Under the pieces are notes generated by a model that was given only the letters and a program-made list of their open reading frames with translations, made no database searches and was not told the origin of the DNA. This document shows, piece after piece, positions 11,921 to 64,000 of a stretch of 64,000 nucleotides of DNA (position 1 is its first letter; each line of letters begins with the position of its first letter). Made by a program: the position numbers and the translations under genes. Where the stretch lies: positions 76,508,001-76,572,000 of the forward strand of contig OX597815.1 in NCBI GenBank assembly GCA_951406725.2. The letters are read 5' to 3'. This DNA is from Octopus vulgaris (Eukaryota).

Positions 11921-12064
11921 TACATTATTTACATTTGGCGGATATTTGTCCTCATCTTGTTTGTTGTTAACACAACGTTTCGGCTGATATACCCTCCAGT
12001 TTTCATCAGGTGTCTTGGGGAAATTTCGAACCTGGGTTCTCACTCCTATGGTAGTTTTCGACGC

Positions 12065-12099
<35 letters not shown>

Positions 12100-12188
12100 T
12101 CACTGCCTGGAATCGAACTCTGAATCTTGGGGTTAGCAGCCCGCGCTCTTAACCCCCAGATTCCGAGATCGATTCCAGGAATAATAAT

Positions 12189-12226
<38 letters not shown>

Positions 12227-12406
12227 CAGCATCGAAAAATACCTTAGGAGTGAGAACCCAGGTTCGAAATTTCCCCAAGACACCTGATGAAAACTGGAGG
12301 GTATATTCAGCCGAAACGTTGTGTTAACAACAAACAAGATGAGGACAAATATCCGTTAAATGTAAATAATGTGCGTAATTCATCATTTCTTAAATATAGA
12401 ACTGTA
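11921..12406. mobile_element. Fold-back insertion of a tRNA-headed, hammerhead-bearing short retroelement
   Basis: Arms about 11921-12150 and 12152-12372 are reverse complements; 14-bp TSD ATATGCAGAACATC at 11907-11920 and 12407-12420; each arm has B-box remnant, (AAT)n and CTGATGA...GAAAC. Confidence 0.85.
12279..12325 (+). ncRNA. Minimal type I hammerhead ribozyme (second copy on minus strand 11969-12014)
   Basis: GACAC-CUGAUGA-AAACUG...CAGCC-GAAAC-GUU-GUGUU; stem I GACAC/GUGUU, stem II only partly paired (CUG/CAG, base weakened), palindromic AACGUU. Confidence 0.6.
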
Positions 12407-17559: not shown

Positions 17560-18105
17560 TCATCGATTCTGAAAGGGTAAAAGGCGAAGTCGAAATTAGT
17601 GGTAAAGACAAACGAAATGCCGCTAAGCATTTTGTTCGGCGTGCTAACGATCCTACCAGCTCGCCGCCAATATAATAATAATAATAATGATAATGATAAT
17701 AATCCTTTCTGCTATAGACACAAGGCCTGAAATTTGGAGGGGAGGAAGGGACCAGTCAATTACATCGACTCCAGTGCGTAACTGGTACTTAATATATCGA
17801 CCCCGAAAGGATGAAAGGCAAAGTCAACCTCTGCGGAATATGAACTCAGAACGCAGCGACGAGCGAAATACCTATTTCTTTATTACCCACAAGGGGCTAA
17901 ACACAGAGGGAACAAACAAGGACAGACATAGGTATTAAGTCGATTACATCGACCCCAGTTCGTAACTGGTACTTAATTTATCGACCCCGAAAGGATGAAA
18001 GGCAAAGTCGACCTCGGCGGAATTTGAACTCACAACGTAACGCAGACGAAATACCGCTAAGCATTTCGCCCGGCGTGCTAACGTTTCTGCCAGCTCGCCG
18101 CCTTC
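17560..18105 (-). mobile_element. Tandem family A SINEs (tRNA-like head, Deu/Nin-like central domain)
   Basis: Minus strand GGCGGCGAGCTGGCAGAAACGTTAGCACGCCGGGCGAAATGCTTAGCGG...GAGTTCAAATTCCGCCGAGGTCGACTTTGCCTTTCATCCTTTCGGGGTCGATAAATTAAGTACCAG, two to three units. Confidence 0.85.
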
Positions 18106-21015: not shown

Positions 21016-22268
21016 CACGTGAGGTGTTCATTAAAGATTTCCCTTGACCCACTTCCGGTTATTGCTGGAAACGGAACTTGTACAGGTATAATTGCACATG
21101 TCTCTACATGTCACATTGTAAATTGCTGTTTCCCATTAGTATTCGTTTATCTTTTGCAGCTGCTGAAGTGGACAAAGCTATTATAACGGAGGCAGTTGAA
21201 AGCAGATCAGTAATAAGGTTCTTATACTTGAAAGGTCGCATACCAAAAGAGACTTTCGATGAAAATGAAAGAGTTTATGGTGACGATGCACCATCATTCG
21301 ACATATTCAAGCACTGGCATCGCCAGTTCAAATGTAGTCGGACATCGGTAGAAACTGCTCCTATTTCTGGACCATATTCCGCCATTGATGACGACATCAT
21401 CCATAAAGTGGAAGCCGCGATTTTGGAGGATCTCCGCATAACTATTCGGCAAGTAGCCCAACAGGTGACGATAAGTTGTCTGCACGATGGATTCCCTGGA
21501 TGCACACACCTTTTCAGACGCAGGAACGAGTTAGTTGCTCCCAAGCTTTTCTGGCAATGTGCGAAGCAAACGCGGAGAACTTTTTCGACAGACTTATCAC
21601 ACAGGATGAAACATGGGTCCATCACTATGAAGCCGAGACTAAAGTCCAGTCGAAGCCAATGAAGCATGATAACTCTCCACCTCCAAAGAAGGCTCGTGTC
21701 CAGCCCTCAGCAGGCAAGATGATGCTCACAGTCTTTTGAGACCGGCGTGGAGTAGCAATGATGGATTTTCTGGCAAAGGGCACCACAGTTGACAAGGCAT
21801 ATTATGCTTCTCTGTTGCAGGAATTGCGGAACGCCATCGAAGCTGAGAGGCATGGCATGCTGATCAAAGGAGTCTACCTCCTCCAAGACAACTCCTCAGC
21901 TCACAATGCGCATGCTGCCCAGATGAAGCACACTCATGCGGCTATAAAATCCTTCCTCATCCTTGTTACTCTCCCCACCTCGCACCATCTGACTTCCACC
22001 TCTTTCCAAACATGAAGTCTTTTTTGAAGGGAAAGCACTTTTCGGATGATGATGAACTTATTTCCGAGGTAAAGTCTTGACTCCAGATGCAACCTACCGA
22101 CTTTTACAGACACGGTCTTCACAGCTTCATAAAGCGATGGGAGAAGTGTGTCACCATTGGTGGTGACTATGTAGAGAAGGACAAATAATCATATAATTAT
22201 GCCAAGTTTCGCTTATCCCAGTCCTTGGGAAGTGAGTTAGGAGAAATCTTTAATGAACACCCCTCATG
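21016..22268 (+). mobile_element. Full-length degenerate mariner transposon
   Basis: TIRs GGTGTTCATTAAAGATTTC / GAAATCTTTAATGAACACC with TA flanks; frameshifted transposase: HTH (SVIRFLYLKG), ITQDETWVHHY, GKMMLTVF, LLQDN, YSPHLAPSDFHLF. Confidence 0.95.
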
Positions 22269-22408: not shown

Positions 22409-23652
22409 CGAAGGTGGGCTGGAAAGTTTAATGGAGGAGTGAATGCTGACTATGAAGGAGCGGTGCTAGAGCTGTGAAATTATGCATGTATTTATTTCAT
22501 ATCTTATTAATAACTGCATTGTTTCTTTCCAGGTAAACTGACATCTGAATGTTTAAAGAAGACTTCAAAAGTAAATAGTGGCGACTTCTCTTGAAAATGG
22601 ATAAAATGACATCGTGGTGTTATTCACTACTTGCAGAAAAAGAGTTTAGCCCCCAAGTACATTCATGCTGATAAGGTTGCTGCATTAGGAGATGGCGCAC
22701 AAGCTTTAACAGTGGAAAAGTGGGTAGCTGAATTTTGGAGGGGAAGGGAGAGTCTTGAAGACAATCCTAGGTCTGAACGTCCCGCAACTGCCATCACCGA
22801 AGAAAACATTGATCGTTTTCATCACATGGTGTAACAGGCTATTGACTGTAAATCAAATAGTCAATGCTATTAGCATATCTCGTGACGGACGCTTTTGTTT
22901 GGCAAGTACCACGTCTCTTGAAACCTGATCAAAAGCGCACCAGATTGATCACGTTACAAGAAAATCTGACATTGTTTGAAGCAGATCCAGCTGGACGTTT
23001 CCTAAGACAGGATGCGTGATGGGTTCATCACTTTGAGCCAGAGACAAAGAGACAATCCGTGCAGTGGAAACACCCTTCCCCATCTGTTCCAAAGAGGCTA
23101 CGGTCGTTTCATCCGCAGGGAAAATGACAGCTTCAGTTTTATGGGCTGCAAAAGGCATTGTATATATCGATTATCTTCAAAAGGGATACTCCATCAATGG
23201 AGAGTACTATGTCAACTTGCTGAGGCAGTTACGAAAGGCTATCAAGACCAAATACCCAGGAAAACTGACAGAATGGGTCTCGTTTCATCAGGACAATACT
23301 CTAGCACAAAATCCTTGGATCAATGGCTGCTGTGCGTGATTGTGGCTTTGAACCAGTTGATCACCCTCCCTATACTCCAGATTTGGCCCCATCTGACTAT
23401 CAGCTGTTCCCCAGCATGAAAAAAGACATTTGGTTGGGAACCTATATCGCATTGATGATGACGTCATATCTGCTGTTGATGACTTTTTTGCCCAACAGGA
23501 TGAAAGCTTCCTTACCGATGGGATCCGAACACTGCAACATAGACGGAAGAAGTGTGTGGACCGCAAGAGGATTATGTTGAAAAATAAACCTCATTTGTTC
23601 ATATTCCGTGAGAATATCTCGGTCAGCCTATGAACTTCTCAGCTGATTCTCG
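22409..23652 (+). mobile_element. Second degenerate mariner transposon (different family)
   Basis: TA-CGAAGGTGGGCTGGAAAGTTTA ... TGAACTTCTCAGCTGATTCTCG-TA; GRESLEDNPRSERP, SAGKMTASVLW, FHQDN, HPPYTPDLAPSDYQLF. Confidence 0.92.
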
Positions 23653-24339: not shown

Positions 24340-25420
24340 GCATTAACTATACTTAACTACACTGTAGTACCTCTGTTCAATAGCCAGCAGAGCTGTTCGA
24401 TGCTGAGGCAGCACATCTTGGTTTAGCTTTCTTGAGCCGCACATATACTGTGAAGTAGTTACTGCCCCGGAGAATGGCGAGGGAGATGCCAGGAACAACC
24501 ACTGTGACCCACGGGGCTTGCACTTGCGGATAGCCATCTCCGCCCCAATAGCGATGAGTAGGGATATGATCCAGGGGCCAAGAACGCCAGAGGTCTCCAC
24601 TGCCACAAGCTCGACTATAAATCTGTCGGAGAGCGACCGATACCTTGACAGCTTGCTTTTCTCAGCCTGATGAGCGGTAGAGCCTGTGCTGGTAGCTGAC
24701 CCCACCAAGTTGCCGCTGGAGAAGGTGTCGCAGCATATGGCGTACCAGATGAAAGACCTACCTCCACGGAACGGGAAAACTATCATATCGTCCGGCCTGT
24801 TGCCGTCTCCTCGGTCTAGCTTCGCTGGGTCGAGCTAGGAAGGGAAGCCTGCAGATTCTAGGCCATAGTTTTATGATCTTGTTAAAGGCGGCATGGCGTG
24901 GAAGGCGGCCGGTACTCTGACGGTATGACAGTGGGTGGAGGCCGAAAGAATCCACAGGGGATATGCAGCGGAATTCACGACGCTCATAGATCTGGAGGCC
25001 AAGCCTCAAGGAAACACCGATGCACAGACAATCGCTACCAAGATGAGTACCAGTTGCGAATGATGGTACGGCATTGAGCCAACCTCCGCTGCGAAGCTCA
25101 GAGGCTGAGCAGAAACCTATCAGACAGTGCTGGTCAAGTCGGCGCACTAACTCATACACAAATCATGCTACACTGAATAGCATCCCATTTCTTTCGAGAG
25201 AACCGAACGTCTTCAGAAGGGAGTTGGTGGAGGTGGGGTGAACGTCAGCAAGATGCAGCCCGGGCTGACTCCATATCGCGCAGGCCGCCTGACTCCATGT
25301 CGCGCAGGCCGCCTGACTCCATGTCGCGCAGGCCGCCTGACTCCATGTCGCGCAGGCCGCCTGACTCTATGTCGCGCAGGCCGCCTCGCGTTCTCTAATC
25401 ACCGATGGTTCAGTTGTATT
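24340..25420 (-). mobile_element. 3' fragment of CRE-like non-LTR retrotransposon (Zn knuckle plus restriction-like endonuclease)
   Basis: SGGWLNAVP, LRLGL, C..VD.FGLHPLS, PRHAAFN, GDGNRPD, AEKSKLSRY, VAVETSGVLG; frameshifted. Confidence 0.85.
25265..25386. repeat. 24-bp GC-rich minisatellite, 5 copies
   Basis: CTGACTCCATGTCGCGCAGGCCGC x5 with two single-base variants. Confidence 0.95.
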
Positions 25421-27329: not shown

Positions 27330-28820
27330 CTTTATTCTCCTCCCGGAAAAATATAAGGTAAAGTTGGCCTCGATGAGATTTTAACTCAGAATGTAAAGAG
27401 CCGCAAGAAATACCGCAAAACATTTCGTCCAACTTTCTTACTATTCTGTCAGTTCGCCACTATTAGTTTCTAGTTTAGGCACTAGACCATCAATTTTATA
27501 ATTAGGGGTAATCTATACTGTGAACCCTAGGACTTGAGTGGTACTTTATTTTATCGCCCTTGGAGAGATGAAAGGCAAAATAGATCTCGGCGAAATTTGA
27601 ACTCGGAACATAATGAGCCGAAAAGAATTGTGCAAGGCATTTTCCCCCACACTCTACTGATTCTGCTAGCTTGCTGCCTGTGTCACAGTACTAATAATCA
27701 TTTCTATTAAAGGCACAAGGCCTGAAGTTTTGGGGGAAGGACTAGTCGATTACATCGACCCCAGTACTCAACTGGTACTTGATTTATCAACTCCGAAAGG
27801 GTGAAAGGCAAAGTTGACCTCGGCGGAATTTGAACTGAGAACGTAGCGGCGGGTGAAACACCGCTAAGCATTTCGTCCAGTGTGCTGACGAATCTGCCAG
27901 CTTGCCACCTTTGTCACAGTACTAATAATAATTTCAAATTTTGGCACAGGGGCAACAGTTTTTGAGGAGAGGGTAAAGTTGATTACATCAATCCCAGTGT
28001 TCAACTGGTACTTACTTTATCAACCCCGAAAGGATGAAAGGCAAAGTAGACACCGGCGGCGTTTGAACTTAGAACGTAAATAGCCGGAAGAAATGCTAGT
28101 AAGTATTTTGTCCGACACGCTCACGGTTCTGCCAACACACCACCTTTGTCCACAAAACTGATAATAATTACTTTTAACATAAGCACAAAAACCAGGAAAT
28201 TTTGGTCGGGGTTTGTCGATTATATCGAATTCTTATTACTTGATTGGTGCTGTATTTTATCGACATGGAAAGGGTGAAAGGCAGAGTTTAACACCACAGT
28301 TGTATAAAACCACGAAATGTTTTGGCGACGGTGTCTGTAGTGTATTAAATCAATACCAGCCTTTAATTAGTTCGCATTTTACCGATTCCTGAACAATCAA
28401 AGGTAAAGTCCATACAGAAAAGATAAATGGTTGGGAAGAGGTGTTAATTTGAAAACGTAAAACGGCCAAACTAAATACTGTAAAATATTTTCCTCAACAT
28501 TTTGTTGTTTCTGCTTCTCATACCTGTTGCTGCTGCTGCTGCCACCACCTTTACCGCCGCCACCACCACTACCTGTAGCATTACTACTACTATCTATTGT
28601 TTTTTGGATGAGTTATATTCCTTTCTATTATAGGTACAAGGCCTGAAATTTCAGAGAGGGGTCTAACTGAATAAAGACCCCCAGTACCTGATTGGTCGTT
28701 AATTCATCGACTCCGAAAGGATAAAAGGCTAAGTCGATCTCGGTGGATTGGAACTCGTAAAGATGACGAGATGCCACTAAGCATTGTGTCAGGCGTGCTA
28801 ACGATTCTGCCAGATCTCAG
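27330..28820 (-). mobile_element. Cluster of same-orientation family A SINE copies of mixed age
   Basis: At least six repeats of the AAAGGCAAAGTCGACCTCGGCGGAATTTGAACTCAGAACGTA-like motif. Confidence 0.85.
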
Positions 28821-37486: not shown

Positions 37487-37845
<359 letters not shown>

Positions 37846-37848
<3 letters not shown>

Positions 37849-38741
37849 AATGTAGGATAAAATTTTTTTCGAAAAAAATATTCTTTTCGAAAAAAATTTT
37901 ATCAATGGCCACCATATTAAAAAATACCTTTAAAGGTTAAATTTACGAACAATTCATAAATAAGGGCAAACGAAAAAATTTCTAATGCCAAATATGCCGA
38001 AAAATTGGACATATTGTCCATTAACCATATAATTTTTTCACAATACGCACGCTACTCGAAGAAAGGTCGACAGAAAATTCTAAAAAATTCCATTATTACC
38101 ATATCGGACCGATTTCAGGGTTAGCTCATAACAGCCCTCCCTTCGTCAGTGATACATGTGGCAAAAGAAATAAATGAGATACTTACTCATACCCATGGAA
38201 TAAGCAAACACTAAGTCATGAGCACAATTAAGTACCCCAAATACATCCAAAATAGAAATACTCCAGCCTATTTTAATATGCTGGCCATTGATAAAATTTT
38301 TTCGAAAAGAATTTCTTTTCGAAAAAAAATTTTATCCTACATTAGATATAAATTTAAGCGTTCACTTCCGGACTCTCTCACTCTGTGAGGGCCTCAGTTC
38401 AAATCGCACGTGTCTCGAATGGGCTGGAGTATTTCTATTTTGGATGTATCTAGGGTACTTAATTGTGCTCATGACTTAGTGTTTGCTTCTTCCATGGGTA
38501 TGAGTAAGTATCTCATTTATTTCTTTTGCCACATGTATCACTGACGAAGGGAGGGCTGTTATGAGCTAACCCTGAAATCGGTCCGATATGGTAATAATGG
38601 AATTTTTAAGAATTTTCTGTCGACCTTTCTTCGAGTAGCGTGTGTATTGTGAAAAAATTATATGGTTAATGGACAATATGTCCAATTTTTCGGCATATTT
38701 GGCATTAGAAATTTTTCGTTTGCCCTTATTTATGAATTGTT
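37846..38741. mobile_element. Inverted, circularly permuted pair of hammerhead-bearing units (Penelope pLTR/retrozyme-like) inside (TA)n
   Basis: 37846-37921 is the reverse complement of 38271-38347; 37948-38268 is the reverse complement of 38422-38741; hammerhead in each long arm. Confidence 0.85.
38536..38588 (+). ncRNA. Minimal type I hammerhead ribozyme (second copy on minus strand about 38102-38154)
   Basis: UAUCA-CUGACGA-AGGG.GGGCU(GUUAUG)AGCU..CCCU-GAAA-UCGGUC-CGAUA; GUC cleavage triplet, near-palindromic GAAA(U)CGGUC, stem I UAUC/GAUA. Confidence 0.75.
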
Positions 38742-39071
38742 TATATATATATATATATATATATATGAGATACATACATATATATGAGATACACACATAC
38801 ATTCAAAACAATACAATGTTTTCAAGATTTTCATAAAATTTAAAGTATAGGCGTCCATGGAAAAAATGTGATTTCTTTCTCTTTGTCTCGCTTTCTTTGT
38901 CTGTTTGTCTCTGTCTGTCTGTCCGTCTGTCTGTCTCTTTAAAGTTCTCTTTCTCTTTAAAGTTCTATTTTAATTGATTTCTTTGTTTTCTCAATCTTGA
39001 CATCAGGAAGACGGTCGATTAAAACAACATAAGTCCAATCGAGAAGACACACATATATACACACACGCGCG

Positions 39072-42376: not shown

Positions 42377-42998
42377 TCTCTTCTATTTTTTCATTTACTA
42401 TAAATCTTCCACTGAGGAAGGAGCCGGTTTCCGACAAAGATACAAAGCTCCATCTTTGGGATGTAGTTAACACAGACAAATTCACATTTGGAACTTGAGA
42501 AAAGTCTTGCATACTTTTATTGTTCTACTCACAGGTTGTATTTGCACGAATTAGCCGGTCGATTTCTCTTTCTGAAAATCCCAGTTTATTCAGAGTCTCC
42601 TTTAAGCATTTATTAACTAAACCTAGTACTCCAATCATTATTAGCATGAATATGAATTCATAGTCTGGATTTAGAAGTTGAAGGTTTCGAAGCAGTTGTC
42701 CATAGATATCCTCTTGTTCTTTGATTTTCAAAAAGATATTTATATCTGCAGGGCGGCTGACCTTTATAACGGTACATGTCTTTGCCCCTCTGTCCCAAAC
42801 AACAATATCCGGCCTGTTATGCTTTGACAGAAATTTTGATGGGAATATTCCACTAGTATTCCTTGAGTTGGTGTTTATGGATGCATTCCACAATAGAGAG
42901 ATTTTCTAAGTTTATTTCAAGACAGTCTATTTTTGTGGATGGCATTGTAAATTGTTTTAGCAACAACATCGTGCCGCATAGGGAGGTAGTACCATGTA
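42377..42998 (-). mobile_element. 3' fragment of R4/Dong-like non-LTR element within (CATA)n
   Basis: YYLPMRHDVVAKTIY, HNRPDIVVWDR, KEQEDIYGQL, IMIGVLG RLE motifs; TGTA repeats on both sides. Confidence 0.8.
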
Positions 42999-43239: not shown

Positions 43240-44496
43240 ACATACACATACAAACCATTTGGCCATACAGCCGCACACCTACACGCACACCTACACACAT
43301 ACACACATTCTCACACACTCATACACTTACAATATACATCGCTATCAAGTCTGTCGTATTTTTTCAGACCTTTCAATTTGTGAACTTAACTTCAGCAATA
43401 ATCAATAGCCCAGAATCTCGTAGCTAAATACGACGATCACAGCCATATATATGTGATTACACTGATAGAAAACCGTCATATCGATTTTGCTACAAAAATT
43501 CCTCCAGCGCTCCCTCCCACACAATACCATACACATCTGTTACCTTACCTATTTGTAAAATAAAGACAATGAAGATATTGAGATATTTGCATTCTCTCTC
43601 TCTCGATCTTTCTCTCTTTGTTGTTCAATCTGTCTCTGTCTGTCTGTCTGTCTGTCTGTCTCTTCCTCTTTCCCTCTACCCCCCCTCTCATTTATTTCCA
43701 TTCAGCTGTTGTATCCTATCTTTTTACCTGAAACTGGTAATCAACAAAAATGTGTACACTGGTGCGTGTTAGAGGGAGGGAAATCAGTGGTGGTGTTGCA
43801 GAGAGAATGTATGTGAGCGTGTGTATGTGTTCGCAAGCGGATTTACGTGGACTTATGCAAGAGAGTGAGAGAATATATGAAAAGTTGAGCTAAAAGTCTG
43901 AGACTTCGTATGTGGATGTGAGTCTCTATGTATGACTGTCAGTATGTGTATGTATGTGTGTGTGTTTGTGTGTAAATGAATAAATGAATGTAATATAGAG
44001 AAAAAGAGATCTGTAATAATAATGCAGTTGTTTTGTGTGTATGTGTGTGTGTGTATGTGTGTGTGTGTGTGTGTGTGTTTGTGTGTGGCAACGTGAAATA
44101 CTTAACTTTTATATATTAATGACGTGCTCTCTTTCGATCTATTAAGTGTCATTGTGTATTCGATTATATATTTGCAAACTCGCTGGTACAAGTGCTACAT
44201 GTTCAAAGCTCCGCATACAAGAAACTAGCAAGTTTATTGAACCACGAGGAAAGAATCTGCTCCGTTTCGGAGGCTTCTTCTCGACGGCATTATTACGCGC
44301 CAGCCCTAATTCATCGAGGTGAGGCACCACTTGCTAGATCAACTGGCTGCCAGGTTTCATTCAATATTCTTCTGGTCCTTTCACATCATCTCTTCTTAAC
44401 CACATCCAATGGCTTTCCTTCTCCACGTTAGTTTAGATATCACTCGTGATGATACTTGTTTTATGTTGAATTAGGCCGAGCGACAACAACTACAGC

Positions 44497-44966
44497 GTTG
44501 AGGCACAATGGCCCAGTGGTTAGGGCAGCAGACTCGTGGTCGTAAGAACGCGGTTTCAATTCCCAGACCGGGCATTGTGAGTGTTTATTGAGCAAAAACA
44601 CCTCAGCTCCACGAGGCTCCGGCGGGCAGGTGGGTGAACCCCGTTGTACTCTTTCCCCACAACTTTCTCTCACTCTTTCTTCCTACTTCTGTCACAAAGC
44701 AGAGAAACCATGGTGTAACCCACTTTGGTGTGGTAAACTTTCAGACCCTAGTTTAGATTACGAATCCTCTGTACTGGTTCAGCTCAGCCAATGTTTACGG
44801 AATGAGGAATACAACGTAGCTTTCGCGCCCGTGCAACCGCCAGTCAATCGCGTGTTGTGGGTGGATCTTCAAGTTGCCACACACATTCTTAGTAGCTTAG
44901 AGTAGGCTCGAATTAGAGATTATTTTTTGTGGCTAAAGGCGTGAATTCTGACTGGAAGAAGAAGAA
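44497..44966 (+). mobile_element. tRNA-derived SINE sharing its 5' half with 4287-4596 but with a different 3' module and (GAA)n tail (duplicate about 57330-57799)
   Basis: Head and body match to about 44685; TSD GACAAC(A/T)ACTACAGC at 44482-44496 and 44967-44981. Confidence 0.8.
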
Positions 44967-45372
44967 GACAACTACTACAGCCTCATGTTGCTTCCAAGTA
45001 ATCCTATACATCCAACTTCAATTGAATAATGTTCAGTTTTCCAGTCAGTGTCTTTTCATTCTTCGAGGAGATATCCATGCCGGTCACTCTTTCGAGTTCG
45101 AGTGGTGTGCACGTTATTTTTATGGGGGAACCGTCGACCAAATTTGCTATTTTCTTTTCCTCACACCAGACGATGGTATCTGATTGCTTCGTAATTTCTA
45201 CGGGGAAGAATCATTGGTACAGAATAGTTTTTACCATCATGAGTAAAATAAGGAAATAATATGGAAAATGTATAATGATCATAATCTAAGTTTTATAAAA
45301 TTTCTTGGTCGTTATACAAAATGAGAAAATAAATGCTAATATACATTACTTTAAGATAAAATTATGGAAGAA

Positions 45373-45447
45373 TATACATTACCTTAAGACATGTATACTT
45401 TAAGGTATACATTACCTTAAAGTATACATGTTTTAAGGTAATGTATA
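45373..45447. repeat. Near-perfect 35-bp-arm palindrome
   Basis: TATACATTACCTTAAGACATGTATACTTTAAGGTA-TACAT-TACCTTAAAGTATACATGTTTTAAGGTAATGTATA, one mismatch. Confidence 0.9.
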
Positions 45448-46074
45448 CATATAAAAGAAAAGAAAAATATATTACTTTAAAATTAAATAACACAAATTTC
45501 TCGTTTGTGTAACTCCTCCTATAACTTCTCTGTCAAGCGGTAGTAAAGGGGACAAACACAAACGTAAAGACATAAACACAGGTATATACTACGAGCTTCT
45601 TTCAGTTTCCGTCTACCATATCCATTAAAAATGCTTTCGTCGCTCCGAGGCTATAGTGAAGACATTTGCTCAAGGTGCCATGCAGTGGGACTGAACTCAG
45701 AGCCCTGTGGTTGGGAAGTAAGCTTCGTATCATACTGCCATTCCTCTACATTATTCTCCATTTTCATACTGAAATTGGTATATCTAATCTCTGACTCAAA
45801 AATATTCCTGAATATATCTCACAGTGATTTCTAACACTGGCGTATCTTCTGAATCGTTTAACTCCAAGTAGAGCATAAGGTACCAACAAGAAATTGATTT
45901 TTTACATACATATATATATATATCTTAGATATTTATATTTCACCCCCCACCACACATCACATATATATCTTATAAATATATTTATATATTTCATATATAT
46001 ATATATATCTTATACATATATACATATATATATGTTATATATATATATCTTATGCATATATATATTTTATACAT

Positions 46075-46107
<33 letters not shown>

Positions 46108-46148
46108 AATATATATGCTATATACATGTCTCATATATATATACATAT

Positions 46149-46185
<37 letters not shown>

Positions 46186-46311
46186 TAGATATATAAATCT
46201 TATATATGTATATATCTTATATACGTTTCATATATATATATATATACATTCCATATATATTATATATATTTTATATAAATATATATTTCATATATGTATG
46301 TAAATGTATGT

Positions 46312-46347
<36 letters not shown>

Positions 46348-46964
46348 CTAGCAGCCAAGCCCGGTTTCACCCGGTTGGTTTGGATGATGTGGCTGTAAAG
46401 CCTGCTCTGTGTAAGCATTCGACTTGTTTGGGCACGTTTACGCCAAAAAAACAATTTTAGAATGGCTTTTTTTCTGTCAAAACGCTAAAAATAATTGACC
46501 ACCCAAAATAAAACAAAACAAAAACGCAACCAAGATTCGACTAAATCAAAAATAGCGCAAATACTAAGCGAACAAAGATGAACCATCCCACTTCCTTTGC
46601 ACACACATTCACATACCCCCTTTTACATACATACATAAACACACACACACATACATTCACACACTCCCCTTTTACATACACACATATATTCACACAGAGT
46701 TGAATATATGTGTGTGTAACAACATCCCACTACCATGTATGACATGCCACCTTCCTTCCTTATTCATGTATCACCCCTTCCTTTCTCATTCATAAACACA
46801 AGAGTATTAATATAGTAGATTATCTCGGTAACCATGGGAGCTATGAAAAATACAAAGCCCAGCATCACCACCGAATCATTCTACACATCTGTGTAATATT
46901 TCGCGCAATTCCACCTAGCCATTTGACCGTGAATCCCAAGTCAAGAAATAATTGCCCATGTCAA

Positions 46965-46975
<11 letters not shown>
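46348..46975 (-). mobile_element. Non-autonomous Helitron (duplicate about 59176-59805)
   Basis: Minus-strand 3' end CCGGGTGAAACCGGG hairpin then CTAG followed by T; 5' end merges into (TA)n. Confidence 0.7.
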
Positions 46976-47057
<82 letters not shown>

Positions 47058-47243
47058 CATATATACACACACACACATATATATATATACATATATATAC
47101 ACATACATATATATATATATATATCTTATTTACATATATCTTATATATATTTATGTGTGTGTAAAGGCAGTGCTCCAGTATGGCTGCAGTTAAATGACTG
47201 AAACAAAACAGTAAAAGAATATATATATATATAAATATGTATT

Positions 47244-47312
<69 letters not shown>

Positions 47313-47421
47313 TTATATACATATACACACATATGTATGTATGTTTGCATGTATGTGTGTGTGAGTGTGTGTTTGTGGCAGGGAATGATTAACGAAATGC
47401 AAATGTTGTGGAGTAGCTTTG

Positions 47422-47522
47422 CTTATGTAACTGGATTTGCAGGAACTATAAATATAGTAATGGTGTTATTATAAATCACAAGTTAGCCTTATGTAACTGG
47501 ATTTGTAGGAACTATAAATATA
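47422..47522. repeat. 35-bp direct repeat with short spacer
   Basis: CTTATGTAACTGGATTTG(C/T)AGGAACTATAAATATA at 47422 and 47488. Confidence 0.9.
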
Positions 47523-48128
47523 CTTGCCGTGCTTGTATATCCGTAGTGCTTGTATATCTGTAACGCTTGTATGAATTACAACACTCAGGTCTGGAGAGCT
47601 TCTTTCACTGGGAGCAAAAATGTGGTTGGAAACGATATCTTCTTTAACTTACATTGCAATGTTGAAGTTCTATGGATTCATATCATTCTGTTTTGTATTA
47701 TTTTCTGTATTATATTGGCTTATTCGTCAGTAGTGTAACAAATCTAACATAAAAGAGACCCAACTAGGGGACCTCTACGCTACCACCTAAATCCTACTCA
47801 TACGATATTTAATTGTCTTAAAAAGGGAATAACATAGTCGCAGATGTACTGTTCAGATAAAGACAGGATGATCATGGATTGACCATCAGGTCTGTTATGG
47901 GACTAAGCAACAGCGATGACATAAAGATGACCTTTCCTGGAAAAGTATTATTTATAAATGTATGGTGACGATTATTCGCCAGCGAGAGATAAGTTCCCTA
48001 TTAGAGAAAAGCATTGTTTGGTTCGAAGTCCAAATTAAAGAATATGCAACTAATATATAACGATATGCAGCTTAATAGTGCTACAGAAGTTGTTCATGAA
48101 GTTTAGACACACAGTATTTAGCGCTACG

Positions 48129-48548
48129 GGATCTTTTCGGTTTGAACGGCAGTTTTTTCATGCGGTGTCATATGAAATTGTCGCCCATAATTATGACCCT
48201 AGTATCGATCTATTGCATTTCAATCTGTTTTAGGCTTAGGGTTAGGGGTGGGGGAAGGGTATCTTTTTTCTTCACAAATATAAATAAACCCGATCTGTTT
48301 CTTAAACGAGGGACATATTCATACGGCACAGAATGTTTTCACCTCAATAGACGTCATTGATTGGTTGAAATTGCAGAAATTGAAGAAAAGAAAAAAACAA
48401 CAAATATCTTACAAGCTATAGAATTTTCTCAATAAAGCCAAGAGAAAAATATGTTTTCTAAACACATTCTACCAGTATACGAAGTTTAAAAGTGTTTAGT
48501 TACGTGGAAATTATTTTAAGAAAACTGCCGTTCAAACCGAAAAGATCC
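48129..48548. mobile_element. MITE with perfect 28-bp TIRs and internal TTAGGG repeats (duplicate about 60961-61381)
   Basis: GGATCTTTTCGGTTTGAACGGCAGTTTT / AAAACTGCCGTTCAAACCGAAAAGATCC; possible TSD GCGCTA/GTGCTA; internal TTAGGCTTAGGGTTAGGGG. Confidence 0.9.
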
Positions 48549-49147
48549 GTGCTATGAAAGATGAAGTTTAGATGCTCAGTAAATAAATTTAGTGGTTAAA
48601 AATTTTTTTTTCCTATTACATAAAGAACGTGACAATGTATCAGCTAATGGCTGCATATGCTTCATTGAAAACCAATCTAACAACTGTATTTTAAATAATA
48701 TAGTGCTTCTCTCCTTCGTAAATGAATTCATTTCAATAATATTACATCGCCAGGGAAATTTTCTTTATTGATTTTTCTATTTTCCAATTTGTTATTCTAA
48801 AACCGATGAAACCCGAGATACATTAATAAAGTTTGATTGGTAGGTCGAGAAGAAAATCGAAAAAAAAAATTACATTGAAAATTTAAAACGCTTTCTCTTT
48901 TAAAAAATGACATTTGAAAAAGAGTTAATAAAAATTAACATTCAGTTTTAATTTCTTCGATTTCAGTTCCAATATCACTCTCCTCCTCATCCACCACTCC
49001 AAGGTATACTACATTTAATGAAACAGCAAAAACAATATACAACAGATGGATGTTTCATTAGATTGCAATACTGAGTTCAAATTCTTCCACAGGTGACTGG
49101 AGGGGAGAAATTTACCAAAAGTAATAATAATATTATTCATTAACTAT

Positions 49148-50610
49148 TGGGCAGCGAACTTGCAGAGTCGTTAGCATCCCGGACAGAATGCTCTACGGTA
49201 TTTCGTCTGCTGCTACGTTCTGAGTTCATATTCCGCCGAGGCCGACTTTGCCTTTCATCCTATCGGAGTCGATTAAATAAGTATCAGTTACGCACTGGGG
49301 TCGATATAATCAACTTAATCCGTTTGTCTGTCCTTGTTTGTCCTCTATGTGGGTAGTAAAGAAATAGGTATTTCGGCTATCTTTATGTTTTGAGTACAAA
49401 TTCCGCCGAAGTTGACTTTACCTTTCATCCTTTGGAGGTCGATAAGATAAGAATCAGTTGAGCGGTATCGATATAATCGACTTAGCCTTTTCTCCAAAAT
49501 TTTTAGCTTTGTGCCAAAATTTGAAACTAATATTATCCAGTAACCATAGGGCGACGAGCTGCAGAAACGTTAGCACGTCGGGCGAAATGTTTAGTAGTAT
49601 TTCGTCTGCCACTACGTTCTGAGTTCAAATTCCGCCGAGGTCGACTTTGCCTTTCATCCTTTCGGGATCGATTAAATAAGTACCAGTTACGCACTGGGGT
49701 CGATATAATCGACTTAATCCGTTTGTCTGTCCTTGTTTGTCCTCTCTGTGTTTAGCCCCTTGTGGGGAGTAAAGAAATAGGTATTTCGTCTGTCTTTACG
49801 TTCTGAGTTCAAATTTCGCCAAGGTCGACTTTGCTTTTTATCCTTTCGGAGTCGATTAAATAAGTACCAGTTACGCACTGGGGTCGATATAATCAACTTA
49901 ATACCTTTGTCTTTCCTTGTTTGTCCTCTCTATGTTTAGCCCCTTGTGGGCGATAAAGAAATAAGAATCGTTAGCGTACTGGGCATAATGCTTAGCGGCA
50001 TTTCTTCATGCTTTGCGTACTGAATTCAAATTCCGCCGAGGTCGACTTTGCTTTTCATGCCTTTCGGGGTCGGTAAAATAAGTATCAGCTAAGCATTGTA
50101 ATCGACAAGCCCCTCCCCACAAATTCCTGGCCTTATGCCTATAGTCTAAAGGATTATCCCTTAACCATATGATGTTGAGCTGGCAGAGTCATAAACGCAT
50201 CGCAGAAAATGCCTAGCGGAATTTCTTCTGGCTCTTTACGATCTGAGTTCAAATTCTGCCGTAGCCCAATTTGTCTTTCATCTTTTCGAAGGTTGATAAA
50301 ATGAAGTACCAGCTAAGCACTGGGGTCGGCGTAATCGAGTAACCCTAAAATTGCTGAGCTAGTACTAAAATTTGAAGCCTTTATTGTTACCTTAACCGTA
50401 AGGTGACAAGCTGGCAGGGTCATTAAGAGACAAAATAATTAGAGGCATTTGATCCAGCTATTTACGTTCTGAGACCAACTATTGCCGAAGTCAACTTTGC
50501 TTCTCATCCTTTGAGGTCGACAAAATAAAGTGCCAGAGAAGCCCTGGGCTCGATGTAATCGACTAACCCACTGCCTTCAAAACTGATGGATTTGAGCCAA
50601 AATTTGAAAC
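49148..50610 (+). mobile_element. Tandem and nested array of family A SINEs (duplicate about 61978-63440)
   Basis: At least seven units with GAGTTCAAATTCCGCCGAGGTCGACTTTGCC-like core; several end in TTTAGCCCCTTGTGGG..TAAAGAAATA. Confidence 0.9.
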
Positions 50611-50644
50611 AATTGTTATTCGTTAATTCAAAGGCCGGCAAATT

Positions 50645-51195
50645 CTTTTCTACTCTAGGCTTAAGGCCCGAAATTTTTGGGAAGGGGCTGGTCGATTAGA
50701 TCGACCCCAGTACGCAACTGGTACTTAATTTATCGACCCCGAAAGAAGGAAAGGCAAAGTCGACCTCGGCGGAATTTGAACTCAGAACGTAGCGGCAGAC
50801 GAAATACCTAATTCTTTACTACCCACAAAGGGCTAAACAGAGAGGGGACAAGCAAGGACAGACAAACGGATTAAGTCGATTATATCGACCCCAGTTCGTA
50901 ATTGGTACTTATTTAATCGACCCCGAAAAGATGAAAGGCAAAGCCAACCTCGGCGGAATTTGAACTCAGAACGTAGCGGCAGACGAAATACCTATTTCTT
51001 TACTACCCACAAGGGGCTAAACACAGAGGGGACAAACAAGGACAGAAACATGGATTAAGTCGATTATATCGACCTCAGTGTGTAACTGGTTCTTATTTAA
51101 TCGACCCCGAAAGTCGACCTCGGCGGAATTTGAACTCAGAACGTAATGGCGGACGAAATACCGCTAAGCATTTCGCTCGGCCTGTTAACGTTTCT
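50645..51195 (-). mobile_element. Tandem trimer of family A SINE (about 188-bp period; duplicate 63475-64000)
   Basis: CCTCGGCGGAATTTGAACTCAGAACGTA repeated at about 50764, 50949 and 51118. Confidence 0.9.
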
Positions 51196-55344: not shown

Positions 55345-56435
55345 AAAGCAGCGAACTTGTAGACTCGTTCGCTAGTTTGGACAAAATAGGTAACGTCATA
55401 CATATATTTTTCCCCCCCAATTTTTACGTTCTGAGTTCAAATTCCACCGATATTGACTTCGCCATTTATCTTTTCACGGTCGATGAAACAAGTATCAGTT
55501 GAGCACTAAGGTCGACGTTATCAACTTACCACACACACTCTCTCTCTTAGAATAGTCGGTGTTCTTGATTTACCCACTTTCATTGAAATTGGTTGGTCTT
55601 GGGCCAAACTTAGAAATATTATCACCACTGAGAGGCTGGTTCATTATTGCTGATGCAAAATTTAGTTGCCGCTCTTTACATTCCGAGTTCAAATCTAACT
55701 GAGGTTAGTTTTGCCTTTCATTCCTCTGGGATCAATACAATAAAGTACTGGGGTCGGTGGTATCGATTAATACCCGCCTCTCAAAATTGCTGGCCTAGTG
55801 CTTAAATAAGAAACCAGGGTGTTGTGAATTGGCAGTATTGTTAGAGCATCGGAAAAATTTGCTGGCAATGTTTAGTTGTGGCTTTTTTACGTTGTAAGTT
55901 AAAATTCTGGCGAGGTCAATTTTACCTTTCATTCTCTTGCTATCATTAAATAATCGATCTACTAAAGCTTTCCCTTCAAAATTGCTGGTCTTGTGCTTAA
56001 ATTATAAATAATAATAATAATTATGTTATCATTTCGAAGGTGGCGAGTAGGTAGGATCGTTAAGACGACGGACAAAATGCTTAGCGGTATTTCGTCTGCG
56101 GTTACGTTCTGAGATCAAGTTCCGCCGAGGTCAACTTTACCTTTCATCCTTTCGGGGTCGATAAATTTAGTACCAGTTACGCACTGGGGTGGATATAATC
56201 GACTTAATCCGTTTGTCTGTCCTTGTTTGTCCGCTCTGTGTTTAGCCCCTTGTGGGTAGTAAAGAAATAGGTATGTCGTTCGCCTTTACGTTCTCAGTTC
56301 GAGTGCCGCCGAGGACGACTTTGTCTTTCATCCGCTTAGAGGTCGATAAAATAATTACCAGCTGAACATTGAGGTCGATATGATCGACATACTGCCTCTC
56401 CCGAAATTGCTGACATTGTACCAAAATTTGAAACC
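55345..56435 (+). mobile_element. Cluster of family A SINEs including a dimer at 56037-56435
   Basis: Repeated TTCTGAGTTCAAATT...GAGGTCAACTTT.CCTTTCAT motifs. Confidence 0.8.
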
Positions 56436-57168: not shown

Positions 57169-57268
57169 NNNNNNNNNNNNNNNNNNNNNNNNNNNNNNNN
57201 NNNNNNNNNNNNNNNNNNNNNNNNNNNNNNNNNNNNNNNNNNNNNNNNNNNNNNNNNNNNNNNNNNNN
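57169..57268. other. Assembly gap (100 N)
   Basis: Direct reading. Confidence 1.
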
Positions 57269-58902
57269 GATATCACTCGTGATGATACTTGTTTTATGTT
57301 GAATTAGGCCGAGCGACAACAACTACAGCGTGGAGGCGCAATGGCCCAGTGGTTAGGGCAGCAGACTCGTGGTCGTAAGAACGCGGTTTCAATTCCCAGA
57401 CCGGGCATTGTGAGTGTTTATTGAGCAAAAACACCTCAGCTCCACGAGGCTCCGGCGGGCAGGTGGGTGAACCCCGTTGTACTCTTTCCCCACAACTTTC
57501 TCTCACTCTTTCTTCCTACTTCTGTCACAAAGCAGAGAAACCATGGTGTAACCCACTTTGGTGTGGTAAACTTTCAGACCCTAGTTTAGATTACGAATCC
57601 TCTGTACTGGTTCAGCTCAGCCAATGTTTACGGAATGAGGAATACAACGTAGCTTTCGCGCCCGTGCAACCGCCAGTCAATCGCGTGTTGTGGGTGGATC
57701 TTCAAGTTGCCACACACATTCTTAGTAGCTTAGAGTAGGCTCGAATTAGAGATTATTTTTTGTGGCTAAAGGCGTGAATTCTGACTGGAAGAAGAAGAAG
57801 ACAACTACTACAGCCTCATGTTGCTTCCAAGTAATCCTATACATCCAACTTCAATTGAATAATGTTCAGTTTTCCAGTCAGTGTCTTTTCATTCTTCGAG
57901 GAGATATCCATGCCGGTCACTCTTTCGAGTTCGAGTGGTGTGCACGTTATTTTTATGGGGGAACCGTCGACCAAATTTGCTATTTTCTTTTCCTCACACC
58001 AGACGATGGTATCTGATTGCTTCGTAATTTCTACGGGGAAGAATCATTGGTACAGAATAGTTTTTACCATCATGAGTAAAATAAGGAAATAATATGGAAA
58101 ATGTATAATGATCATAATCTAAGTTTTATAAAATTTCTTGGTCGTTATACAAAATGAGAAAATAAATGCTAATATACATTACTTTAAGATAAAATTATGG
58201 AAGAATATACATTACCTTAAGACATGTATACTTTAAGGTATACATTACCTTAAAGTATACATGTTTTAAGGTAATGTATACATATAAAAGAAAAGAAAAA
58301 TATATTACTTTAAAATTAAATAACACAAATTTCTCGTTTGTGTAACTCCTCCTATAACTTCTCTGTCAAGCGGTAGTAAAGGGGACAAACACAAACGTAA
58401 AGACATAAACACAGGTATATACTACGAGCTTCTTTCAGTTTCCGTCTACCATATCCATTAAAAATGCTTTCGTCGCTCCGAGGCTATAGTGAAGACATTT
58501 GCTCAAGGTGCCATGCAGTGGGACTGAACTCAGAGCCCTGTGGTTGGGAAGTAAGCTTCGTATCATACTGCCATTCCTCTACATTATTCTCCATTTTCAT
58601 ACTGAAATTGGTATATCTAATCTCTGACTCAAAAATATTCCTGAATATATCTCACAGTGATTTCTAACACTGGCGTATCTTCTGAATCGTTTAACTCCAA
58701 GTAGAGCATAAGGTACCAACAAGAAATTGATTTTTTACATACATATATATATATATCTTAGATATTTATATTTCACCCCCCACCACACATATATATCTTA
58801 TAAATATATTTATATATTTCATATATATATATATATCTTATACATATATACATATATATATGTTATATATATATATCTTATGCATATATATATTTTATAC
58901 AT

Positions 58903-58935
<33 letters not shown>

Positions 58936-58976
58936 AATATATATGCTATATACATGTCTCATATATATATACATAT

Positions 58977-59013
<37 letters not shown>

Positions 59014-59139
59014 TAGATATATAAATCTTATATATGTATATATCTTATATACGTTTCATATATATATATATATACATTCCATATATATTATATATATTTT
59101 ATATAAATATATATTTCATATATGTATGTAAATGTATGT

Positions 59140-59175
<36 letters not shown>

Positions 59176-59791
59176 CTAGCAGCCAAGCCCGGTTTCACCC
59201 GGTTGGTTTGGATGATGTGGCTGTAAAGCCTGCTCTGTGTAAGCATTCGACTTGTTTGGGCACGTTTACGCCAAAAAAACAATTTTAGAATGGCTTTTTT
59301 TCTGTCAAAACGCTAAAAATAATTGACCACCCAAAATAAAACAAAACAAAAACGCAACCAAGATTCGACTAAATCAAAAATAGCGCAAATACTAAGCGAA
59401 CAAAGATGAACCATCCCACTTCCTTTGCACACACATTCACATACCCCCTTTTACATACATACATAAACACACACACACATACATTCACACACTCCCCTTT
59501 TACATACACACATATATTCACACAGAGTTGAATATATGTGTGTGTAACAACATCCCACTACCATGTATGACATGCCACCTTCCTTCCTTATTCATGTATC
59601 ACCCCTTCCTTTCTCATTCATAAACACAAGAGTATTAATATAGTAGATTATCTCGGTAACCATGGGAGCTATGAAAAATACAAAGCCCAGCATCACCACC
59701 GAATCATTCTACACATCTGTGTAATATTTCGCGCAATTCCACCTAGCCATTTGACCGTGAATCCCAAGTCAAGAAATAATTGCCCATGTCA

Positions 59792-59885
<94 letters not shown>

Positions 59886-60071
59886 CATATATACACACAC
59901 ACACATATATATATATACATATATATACACATACATATATATATATATATATCTTATTTACATATATCTTATATATATTTATGTGTGTGTAAAGGCAGTG
60001 CTCCAGTATGGCTGCAGTTAAATGACTGAAACAAAACAGTAAAAGAATATATATATATATAAATATGTATT

Positions 60072-60144
<73 letters not shown>

Positions 60145-63100
60145 TTATATACATATACACACATATGTATGTATGTTTGCATGTATGTGTGTGTGAGTGT
60201 GTGTTTGTGGCAGGGAATGATTAACGAAATGCAAATGTTGTGGAGTAGCTTTGCTTATGTAACTGGATTTGCAGGAACTATAAATATAGTAATGGTGTTA
60301 TTATAAATCACAAGTTAGCCTTATGTAACTGGATTTGTAGGAACTATAAATATACTTGCCGTGCTTGTATATCCGTAGTGCTTGTATATCTGTAACGCTT
60401 GTATGAATTACAACACTCAGGTCTGGAGAGCTTCTTTCACTGGGAGCAAAAATGTGGTTGGAAACGATATCTTCTTTAACTTACATTGCAATGTTGAAGT
60501 TCTATGGATTCATATCATTCTGTTTTGTATTATTTTCTGTATTATATTGGCTTATTCGTCAGTAGTGTAACAAATCTAACATAAAAGAGACCCAACTAGG
60601 GGACCTCTACGCTACCACCTAAATCCTACTCATACGATATTTAATTGTCTTAAAAAGGGAATAACATAGTCGCAGATGTACTGTTCAGATAAAGACAGGA
60701 TGATCATGGATTGACCATCAGGTCTGTTATGGGACTAAGCAACAGCGATGACATAAAGATGACCTTTCCTGGAAAAGTATTATTTATAAATGTATGGTGA
60801 CGATTATTCGCCAGCGAGAGATAAGTTCCCTATTAGAGAAAAGCATTGTTTGGTTCGAAGTCCAAATTAAAGAATATGCAACTAATATATAACGATATGC
60901 AGCTTAATAGTGCTACAGAAGTTGTTCATGAAGTTTAGACACACAGTATTTAGCGCTACGGGATCTTTTCGGTTTGAACGGCAGTTTTTTCATGCGGTGT
61001 CATATGAAATTGTCGCCCATAATTATGACCCTAGTATCGATCTATTGCATTTCAATCTGTTTTAGGCTTAGGGTTAGGGGTGGGGGGAAGGGTATCTTTT
61101 TTCTTCACAAATATAAATAAACCCGATCTGTTTCTTAAACGAGGGACATATTCATACGGCACAGAATGTTTTCACCTCAATAGACGTCATTGATTGGTTG
61201 AAATTGCAGAAATTGAAGAAAAGAAAAAAACAACAAATATCTTACAAGCTATAGAATTTTCTCAATAAAGCCAAGAGAAAAATATGTTTTCTAAACACAT
61301 TCTACCAGTATACGAAGTTTAAAAGTGTTTAGTTACGTGGAAATTATTTTAAGAAAACTGCCGTTCAAACCGAAAAGATCCGTGCTATGAAAGATGAAGT
61401 TTAGATGCTCAGTAAATAAATTTAGTGGTTAAAAATTTTTTTTTCCTATTACATAAAGAACGTGACAATGTATCAGCTAATGGCTGCATATGCTTCATTG
61501 AAAACCAATCTAACAACTGTATTTTAAATAATATAGTGCTTCTCTCCTTCGTAAATGAATTCATTTCAATAATATTACATCGCCAGGGAAATTTTCTTTA
61601 TTGATTTTTCTATTTTCCAATTTGTTATTCTAAAACCGATGAAACCCGAGATACATTAATAAAGTTTGATTGGTAGGTCGAGAAGAAAATCGAAAAAAAA
61701 AAATTACATTGAAAATTTAAAACGCTTTCTCTTTTAAAAAATGACATTTGAATAAGAGTTAATAAAAATTAACATTCAGTTTTAATTTCTTCGGTTTCAG
61801 TTCCAATATCACTCTCCTCCTCATCCACCACTCCAAGGTATACTACATTGAAACAGCAAAAACAATATACAACAGATGGATGTTTCATTAGATTGCAATA
61901 CTGAGTTCAAATTCTTCCACAGGTGACTGGAGGGGAGAAATTTACCAAAAGTAATAATAATATTATTCATTAACTATTGGGCAGCGAACTTGCAGAGTCG
62001 TTAGCATCCCGGACAGAATGCTCTACGGTATTTCGTCTGCTGCTACGTTCTGAGTTCATATTCCGCCGAGGCCGACTTTGCCTTTCATCCTATCGGAGTC
62101 GATTAAATAAGTATCAGTTACGCACTGGGGTCGATATAATCAACTTAATCCGTTTGTCTGTCCTTGTTTGTCCTCTATGTGGGTAGTAAAGAAATAGGCA
62201 TTTCGGCTATCTTTATGCTCTGAGTACAAATTCCGCCGAAGTTGACTTTACCTTTCATCCTTTGGAGGTCGATAAGATAAGAATCAGTTGAGCGGTATCG
62301 ATATAATCGACTTAGCCTTTTCTCCAAAATTTTTAGCTTTGTGCCAAAATTTGAAACTAATATTATCCAGTAACCATAGGGCGACGAGCTGCAGAAACGT
62401 TAGCACGTCGGGCGAAATGTTTAGTAGTATTTCGTCTGCCACTACGTTCTGAGTTCAAATTCCGCCGAGGTCGACTTTGCCTTTCATCCTTTCGGGATCG
62501 ATTAAATAAGTACCAGTTACGCACTGGGGTCGATATAATCGACTTAATCCGTTTGTCTGTCCTTGTTTGTCCTCTCTGTGTTTAGCCCCTTGTGGGGAGT
62601 AAAGAAATAGGTATTTCGTCTGTCTTTACGTTCTGAGTTCAAATTTCGCCAAGGTCGACTTTGCTTTTTATCCTTTCGGAGTCGATTAAATAAGTACCAG
62701 TTACGCACTGGGGTCGATATAATCAACTTAATACCTTTGTCTTTCCTTGTTTGTCCTCTCTATGTTTAGCCCCTTGTGGGCGATAAAGAAATAAGAATCG
62801 TTAGCGTACTGGGCATAATGCTTAGCGGCATTTCTTCATGCTTTGCGTACTGAATTCAAATTCCGCCGAGGTCGACTTTGCTTTTCATGCCTTTCGGGGT
62901 CGGTAAAATAAGTATCAGCTAAGCATTGTAATCGACAAGCCCCTCCCCACAAATTCCTGGCCTTATGCCTATAGTCTAAAGGATTATCCCTTAACCATAT
63001 GATGTTGAGCTGGCAGAGTCATAAACGCATCGCAGAAAATGCCTAGCGGAATTTCTTCTGGCTCTTTACGATCTGAGTTCAAATTCTGCCGTAGCCCAAT

Positions 63101-64000
63101 TTGTCTTTCATCTTTTCGAAGGTTGATAAAATGAAGTACCAGCTAAGCACTGGGGTCGGCGTAATCGAGTAACCCTAAAATTGCTGAGCTAGTACTAAAA
63201 TTTGAAGCCTTTATTGTTACCTTAACCGTAAGGTGACAAGCTGGCAGGGTCATTAAGAGACAAAATAATTAGAGGCATTTGATCCAGCTATTTACGTTCT
63301 GAGACCAACTATTGCCGAAGTCAACTTTGCTTCTCATCCTTTGAGGTCGACAAAATAAAGTGCCAGAGAAGCCCTGGGCTCGATGTAATCGACTAACCCA
63401 CTGCCTTCAAAACTGATGGATTTGAGCCAAAATTTGAAACAATTGTTATTCGTTAATTCAAAGGCCGGCAAATTCTTTTCTACTCTAGGCTTAAGGCCCG
63501 AAATTTTTGGGAAGGGGGCTGGTCGATTAGATCGACCCCAGTACGCAACTGGTACTTAATTTATCGACCCCGAAAGAAGGAAAGGCAAAGTCGACCTCGG
63601 CGGAATTTGAACTCAGAACGTAGCGGCAGACGAAATACCTAATTCTTTACTACCCACAAAGGGCTAAACAGAGAGGGGACAAGCAAGGACAGACAAACGG
63701 ATTAAGTCGATTATATCGACCCCAGTTCGTAATTGGTACTTATTTAATCGACCCCGAAAAGATGAAAGGCAAAGCCAACCTCGGCGGAATTTGAACTCAG
63801 AACGTAGCGGCAGACGAAATACCTATTTCTTTACTACCCACAAGGGGCTAAACACAGAGGGGACAAACAAGGACAGAAACATGGATTAAGTCGATTATAT
63901 CGACCTCAGTGTGTAACTGGTTCTTATTTAATCGACCCCGAAAGTCGACCTCGGCGGAATTTGAACTCAGAACGTAATGGCGGACGAAATACCGCTAAGC
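57269..64000 (+). repeat. Copy 2 of the duplication, starting exactly at the gap
   Basis: Begins GATATCACTCGTGATGATAC as at 44436 and runs to the window end. Confidence 0.97.

Follow-up and report, generated by a model that had tools for sequence, protein, structure and literature searches.

Head-to-head hammerhead arms between TA tracts of Octopus vulgaris: likely a non-autonomous, retrozyme-like Penelope parasite

What placed two inverted, hammerhead-bearing copies of a non-coding repeat head to head between TA tracts of the octopus genome, and from what kind of RNA were they copied? We analyzed the whole 64-kb stretch of DNA in which the locus lies (hereafter the window). Self-BLAST resolves a minus-strand arm reading B-D-A (38272-37848) and a plus-strand arm reading A-C-B (38271-38741), the head-to-head arrangement that the first-pass annotation had described. 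The two copies of B (37948-38272 on the minus strand and 38418-38741 on the plus strand) are identical at 318 of 325 positions (97.8%, E 2e-161) and those of A (37848-37922 and 38271-38344) at about 93%; segment D (37923-37947, 25 nt) is present in the minus arm only and segment C (38345-38417, 73 nt) in the plus arm only. Together, A, C, B and D add up to a unit of 496 nt with a GC content of 32-35%, in keeping with the earlier proposal of a cyclic unit of roughly 500 nt in the order A-C-B-D. In ribozyme sense, both arms point outwards from their junction (38266-38272) into TA tracts, and the setting between (TA)n tracts is confirmed by TA-rich flanks of 357 bp on the left (37490-37846) and a shorter stretch on the right (38742-38785), in which no target-site duplication is readable. 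The features of the locus are as follows.

37490..37847, no strand: left TA-rich microsatellite, the likely target; the inverted arm ends there at an ATAT/TATA overlap
37848..37922, minus strand: segment A, closing the inverted arm at its 3' end; contains an A/T-rich hairpin in which 18 bp are duplicated
37923..37947, minus strand: segment D, 25 nt (self-BLAST map and family contigs)
37948..38272, minus strand: segment B of the inverted arm, 5' end at 38268-38272 (self-BLAST)
38090..38161, minus strand: type I hammerhead of the inverted arm; CUGACGA 38149-38143, GAAA 38116-38113, predicted cut after A38102
38266..38272, no strand: head-to-head junction; imperfect microhomology of a few bases with each arm
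38271..38344, plus strand: segment A, 5' end of the direct arm (self-BLAST)
38345..38417, plus strand: segment C; starts with TATAAATTTAA (38347-38357), B-box-like word at 38397-38405
38418..38741, plus strand: segment B of the direct arm; at its end family copies go on with TATAAAT
38529..38600, plus strand: type I hammerhead of the direct arm; CUGACGA 38541-38547, stem II 38548-38573, GAAA 38574-38577
38742..38785, no strand: right TA-rich microsatellite (repeat map)

Segments D and A form a tail of 100 nt that is found at the left end of the insertion only. Both outer ends of the insertion fall at TATAAATTTAA, an 11-nt AT-rich motif with one further match in the 64 kb: one at the start of C (38347) and the other at the start of D, with the majority letters at 37946-37947. 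These are the first two letters of D, which begins with the motif in about 99% of the family depth. The motif offers TATA microhomology to a TA target.

Self-BLAST detected no further copies of the element in the window, which holds several other repeats. Positions 44436-51169 and 57269-64000 are a 6.7-kb direct duplication with 99.6% identity, the second copy lying right behind a gap of 100 N (57169-57268), and this is likely a haplotype or scaffolding duplication. A SINE-like repeat is present in many copies (49597-49963, 50691-51112, 17703-18102, 27524-28169 and 56058-56397), some of them 184-bp tandem arrays, two of which face each other; we take this repeat and its arrays to resemble an octopus tRNA-derived SINE. 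There are broken pieces of a mariner transposase (21048-21739 and 23006-23419, with HTH_48 and Transposase_1), and two minus-strand frames (24343-25162 and 42525-42905) that presumably resemble pieces of non-LTR retrotransposon proteins, judged by eye, and that had no match in Pfam. Another imperfect palindrome (11922-12372, 450 bp, 88%) surrounds AAT/TTA microsatellites; the descriptor finds no hammerhead in it, and it is possibly another head-to-head insertion.

The absence of an ORF, already noted in the first reading of the locus, was borne out. The longest stop-free frame in the element is 85 aa, and 0 of 22 frames of at least 25 aa reached the Pfam cut-off (3 of the 22 gave weak matches far below it). 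A 44-aa sense frame across B-D, the one frame of the 22 compared with 1.84 billion proteins, had a single match, a spurious one, in which six short stretches of a repetitive FG-GAP-domain protein made up the score. No ORF for a reverse transcriptase (RT) and GIY-YIG endonuclease exists at the locus, which is therefore not an autonomous Penelope-like element (PLE). Segment C contains a TATA-like word, TCACT words and the B-box-like word, which stays within the consensus in the variants of the family; these words may be those of a promoter module, or may have arisen by chance. A Pol III head of tRNA origin is no more than a lead for it: the B-box-like word also occurs in 158 of 2,000 shuffles and is followed by six runs of at least four T, and neither ARAGORN nor Rfam found a tRNA in the segment. 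Rfam gave 20 weak matches, to models of miRNAs and other RNAs, in the TA tracts and in the A hairpin, and these were taken as chance. Pattern scans retrieved 0 loci from metagenome contigs and 0 from viral contigs, and all 7 prokaryotic loci were chance matches of 19-26 nt.

We surveyed the family by aligning the contigs of four public runs to positions 37850-38430 (X4 and X3, assumed to be DNA by guess; X14 and X16, RNA by guess only and given no weight for expression). Matches were found in 3,596 contigs of X4, 4,873 of X3, 404 of X14 and 53 of X16, many of them at 90-99% identity, and the stretch is present in 20 of the 24 runs listed, which come from 10 studies and carry 4 organism labels; no RNA run is listed among those that contain it. 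Colinear joints from C to B occur in 5 X4 and 6 X3 contigs, and more loose ends go on into B. Another 25 loose ends, from X3, continue beyond A into the beginning of C (24 of 504 loose-end entries were listed). Two pieces, 16 (38329-38423, 5 letters different) and 32 (38271-38430, 13 different), hold A, C and the start of B in one contig. The joint from D to A (37922/38271) was found in 6 contigs, B-D-A is joined in other family contigs, and there is one B-C-B tandem joint. Since A-C, C-B, B-D and D-A are each joined in other copies, the 496-nt non-coding unit exists, and the earlier claim of a non-coding family is supported, by the thousands of matching contigs and by A-C-B and B-D-A being joined in some of them. 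No contig spanning the whole unit, D-A-C in one piece or the central junction was seen among the 32 of 9,106 pieces listed. The A hairpin (37856-37903 and 38290-38336) contains the 18-bp duplication in both arms, and in family loose ends a single palindrome centred on TTCGAA is found instead.

The architecture of the locus is that of ordinary PLE ends, and a long coding PLE, probably one of the Neptune type, which targets TA, could have left the two arms as truncated ends (a pLTR with its tail). A-C-B would then be a deletion or partial-tandem by-product rather than a unit that replicates. Truncated PLEs have indeed been reported with pairs of hammerheads on opposite strands 100-700 bp apart (PMC4209133), and one family piece (31, of 301 nt) extends 170 letters beyond the B start without a listed match. 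The summed depth over C is also 4.5-10 times below that over B (this is contig depth, which is no copy number and cannot rank the parts); given this lower depth, many copies may lack C and could carry other sequence upstream of B. However, the A-C joint and the C-B joint each occur in many diverged contigs, and depth at the A end is as great as that of C, so that C is normally preceded by A. Furthermore, contigs that lead into unlike sequence make up a share of 0, after rounding, in X4 as well as in X3, and no coding trace was found either in Pfam (0 of 22 frames) or in the B-D frame, with its spurious match only. The case of the ends of a long coding element, which the first-pass annotation had named as refuting its own reading, is disfavoured, and we regard it as quite unlikely.

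The inversion is not confined to this locus either. In 9 of the 27 joints listed (70 in total), an inverted B with its cut point somewhere from 37981 to 38253 adjoins plus-strand A or C. These 9 head-to-head joints likely represent different loci, since 7 of them come from X3 alone. The inverted arm in them always keeps the part that lies downstream in ribozyme sense, as 5' truncation predicts. The joints point to a strand switch that recurs in the family, at many points. They also bear on whether the palindrome is a misassembly beside the long TA tract, or a later product of two separate copies. None of the pieces listed bridges the central junction, and the 6.7-kb near-exact duplication beside the N gap means that the assembly of this region may have faults. 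Yet the same class of joint is found in other contigs, the arms differ at 7 of 325 positions of B and each has a segment that the other lacks, and two near-private letters are common to both. The letter at 38077 has a leftover depth of 12.4 out of 137,773 in X4 and 38.3 out of 392,933 in X3, about one locus's worth, and a second rare letter is found at 38061. Considering that the arms have these letters in common, they are likely derived from one source and not from two insertions, and an artifact or a two-copy origin is very improbable.

Each copy of B carries CTGACGA and a stem II, read earlier as part of a hammerhead, and this assignment holds: in the 64-kb window, searched on both strands, a type I descriptor has no other match than these two sites, and it matches 0 of 2,000 shuffles of the unit. 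All elements of the fold are present, namely, the core (CUGANGA, GAAA and UH) and helices I (5 bp plus a distal 3 bp), II (4+4 bp) and III (4 bp, with the loop GUC). The Rfam hammerhead models gave no match to it, neither at the gathering score nor at E up to 10. The cleavage site is where our reading departs from the first one, which had placed it at GUC. This triplet is the loop of a palindromic stem III (38577-38587 in the plus arm), and the cleavage triplet is predicted to be AUA because the helices close only with a cut after it (A38588, position H17, in the plus arm and 38102 in the minus arm). A cut at GUC was rejected: loop III would shrink to 2 nt and a C-A mismatch would adjoin the core (-11.8 versus -15.2 kcal/mol).

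In the predicted ensemble, the monomer is inactive, with the core paired to stem III (probability 0.98) and the active fold about 6 kcal/mol above the minimum; the computed energy of the self-duplex that the palindromic stem III allows between two molecules is -13.9 kcal/mol. The hammerhead is predicted to cut after AUA, probably acting as a dimer through the palindromic stem III, and both this stem and the misfolding monomer fit the dimer-acting PLE hammerheads described by Cervera and de la Peña (2014, PMC4209133). These, as characterized there, also have a palindromic stem/loop III, a 5-bp helix I and a long helix II, but the octopus motif has A10.1-U11.1 in place of the conserved G-C, an AUA triplet and no bulged base before stem II.

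Variation in the family was read from the 40 of 73 variant entries listed, 12 of which fall in the hammerhead motif and none of these 12 in the core or stem III. Two pairs vary in the compensatory direction (38140/38119 and 38134/38125, the pairing being read per position and not within the same molecules), five variant positions are located in loops or bulges, and the variant at 38092 breaks a pair of distal helix I. One X14 loose end has a stem III variant that keeps the pairing before AUA without the GUC. The depth of X4 and X3 shows no step at the predicted cut site (5'/3' ratios of 0.93 and 0.79, contig depths of little weight). In some X14 and X16 loose ends at 38165, the part of B upstream of the ribozyme is kept and followed by another hammerhead-like core (CUGAGGA) and a stem of reduced length. 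These ends suggest that one subfamily carries a different ribozyme module.

How, then, was the pair inserted? Since A follows B at a distance of 25 nt in one arm and precedes it by 73 nt in the other, the template was longer than one unit. With a probability of roughly 0.6, we favor one insertion of an abundant 496-nt repeat by PLE enzymes into a (TA)n target, likely from a linear, uncut RNA of more than one unit, counting a fold-back as a variant of the same explanation. The RT and endonuclease of an autonomous PLE would copy the non-coding RNA into the (TA)n tract, after the enzyme had nicked both strands of the tract. Each nicked strand would prime a cDNA at one of the two TATAAATTTAA motifs, which are 100 nt apart in the RNA (at the B-D and A-C boundaries), giving an arm B-C-A on one strand and an arm A-D-B on the other. 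Microhomology would then unite the 5' ends of the two cDNAs, so that just one end of the product retains the D-A tail. In the variant, a single A-C-B-D-A cDNA would fold back and lose one tail, with the same product. The shortest template would be a linear A-C-B-D-A of about 570 nt, and a B-D-A-C-B RNA would serve equally. As this shortest template has one hammerhead, the circular permutation of the arms needs only terminal redundancy, and this insertion did not require cutting by the hammerhead, since both arms keep the sequence on either side of the site.

Taken together, a truncated arm in inverted orientation, a one-ended tail and a microsatellite as the target make up the published PLE signature. 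PLE insertions have been described as an inverted, 5'-truncated copy head to head with a direct copy, with a tail of 30-40 bp at one end and a bias towards microsatellites (PMC8557442, PMC3846280), and self-priming has been proposed for them (PMC3846280). PAc, an element of the anole, introduces a nick into each strand of AT-rich DNA and extends both; two internal start sites in the RNA set its tail, and uncut RNA is its main substrate (PMC11167929). In the accounts of these endonuclease-bearing PLEs (Arkhipova et al. 2013, PMC3846280; Craig et al. 2021, PMC8557442; Frangieh et al. 2024, PMC11167929), the inverted 5'-truncated arm and the one-end tail, the microsatellite target without a readable duplication, the hammerhead in a repeated end and the microhomology at the junction are all like those of the octopus locus, where the AT-rich target is represented by the TA tracts on either side of the single locus 37846-38741. 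The octopus element differs in that it lacks an RT/GIY-YIG frame and that both of its ends are located at one repeated 11-nt AT-rich motif. Its tail of 100 nt, compared to 30-40 nt in described PLEs, stands against our favored explanation.

A different template would be a covalently closed circle of 496 nt, which the hammerhead would release and ligate and around which a reverse transcriptase would roll, as in the model for animal retrozymes. The four junctions of the unit do close into a cycle, and the cut site is intact in both arms, as a religated circle would show. Retrozymes of coral, mussel and axolotl are expressed as circles (PMC7229834), and the arms fold better than shuffles (z of about -6, or about -2.5 to -2.8 without the A hairpin). 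Against the circle, a linear RNA of 1.15 units accounts for the locus, and uncut RNA was the main substrate of the only PLE studied in vitro (PMC11167929). The B start acts as a fixed 5' end, which is foreign to circles, and the inverted arm starts there. Four joints listed, with three distinct offsets (-41 twice, -64 and -67), tie the B start to earlier points of C; they agree with the hint, to which the drop in depth at the B start adds weakly, that many copies begin at this position. We consider the circle unlikely as the template of this insertion. From the original proposal of a circular or tandem RNA template with a strand switch, a template longer than one unit and a recurrent strand switch are retained, and the circle is not needed.

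Under the linear-template explanation, the locus is likely a non-autonomous, retrozyme-like Penelope parasite, and two groups of non-coding elements invite comparison. Animal non-LTR retrozymes (Cervera and de la Peña 2020, PMC7229834; Li, Clavereau and Pollet 2026, bioRxiv 10.64898/2026.07.22.740005) are, as presented in these sources, similarly small non-coding units with a type I hammerhead, many copies and a GC content below 50%, and have been proposed to be moved by PLEs; the 496 nt of the octopus unit fall within the range of 51-972 bp given in the latter. They occur in head-to-tail arrays and as circular RNA, whereas the octopus element is known here as an inverted pair in a TA tract and from contig joints. 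In addition, its stem III (4 bp plus a 3-nt loop) is longer than the usual 1-2 bp of retrozymes, and its loop II has an extra helix. No LTR, primer binding site or polypurine tract, features that retrozymes of this kind lack, was noticed in it. The non-autonomous Chlamys PLEs, such as MRC1 (PMC8557442), are likewise non-coding and acquire pLTRs and head-to-tail copies through a PLE partner. However, they are algal, most are described there as devoid of canonical hammerheads and their partners are known, unlike the octopus unit, known here without its partner. Among the papers listed, no description of a cephalopod retrozyme or hammerhead repeat was found by title or the start of the abstract, and Repbase, Dfam or supplements may already hold the family. 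A 2026 annotation of Octopus vulgaris lists 31 recently active Penelope-like families, with no mention of ribozymes in its main text (PMC13282606).

The insertion architecture as such has already been described, and the locus by itself is not surprising. Its interest resides in what moves. That PLEs mobilize animal retrozymes has so far been argued, in the sources cited, from co-occurrence and sequence trees (PMC7229834; bioRxiv 10.64898/2026.07.22.740005), and the mechanism of mobilization is presented as still to be elucidated (bioRxiv 10.64898/2026.07.22.740005). When a non-coding unit with a hammerhead is inserted time and again with the inverted arm and tail of PLEs, the insertions themselves provide the evidence. 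The large family would let 5' ends discriminate between a circle and a linear transcript, and would also let the role of the repeated AT-rich motif in setting two priming sites be asked. As a tentative possibility, the family could be a retrozyme of about 500 nt, high in copy number and expressed as circular RNA, whose dispersed copies bear the full Penelope signature, with two TATAAATTTAA priming sites that direct its insertion to TA microsatellites and a hammerhead module swapped between subfamilies. If true, a circular-RNA retrozyme with the Penelope signature would be direct structural evidence of PLE enzymes moving retrozymes.
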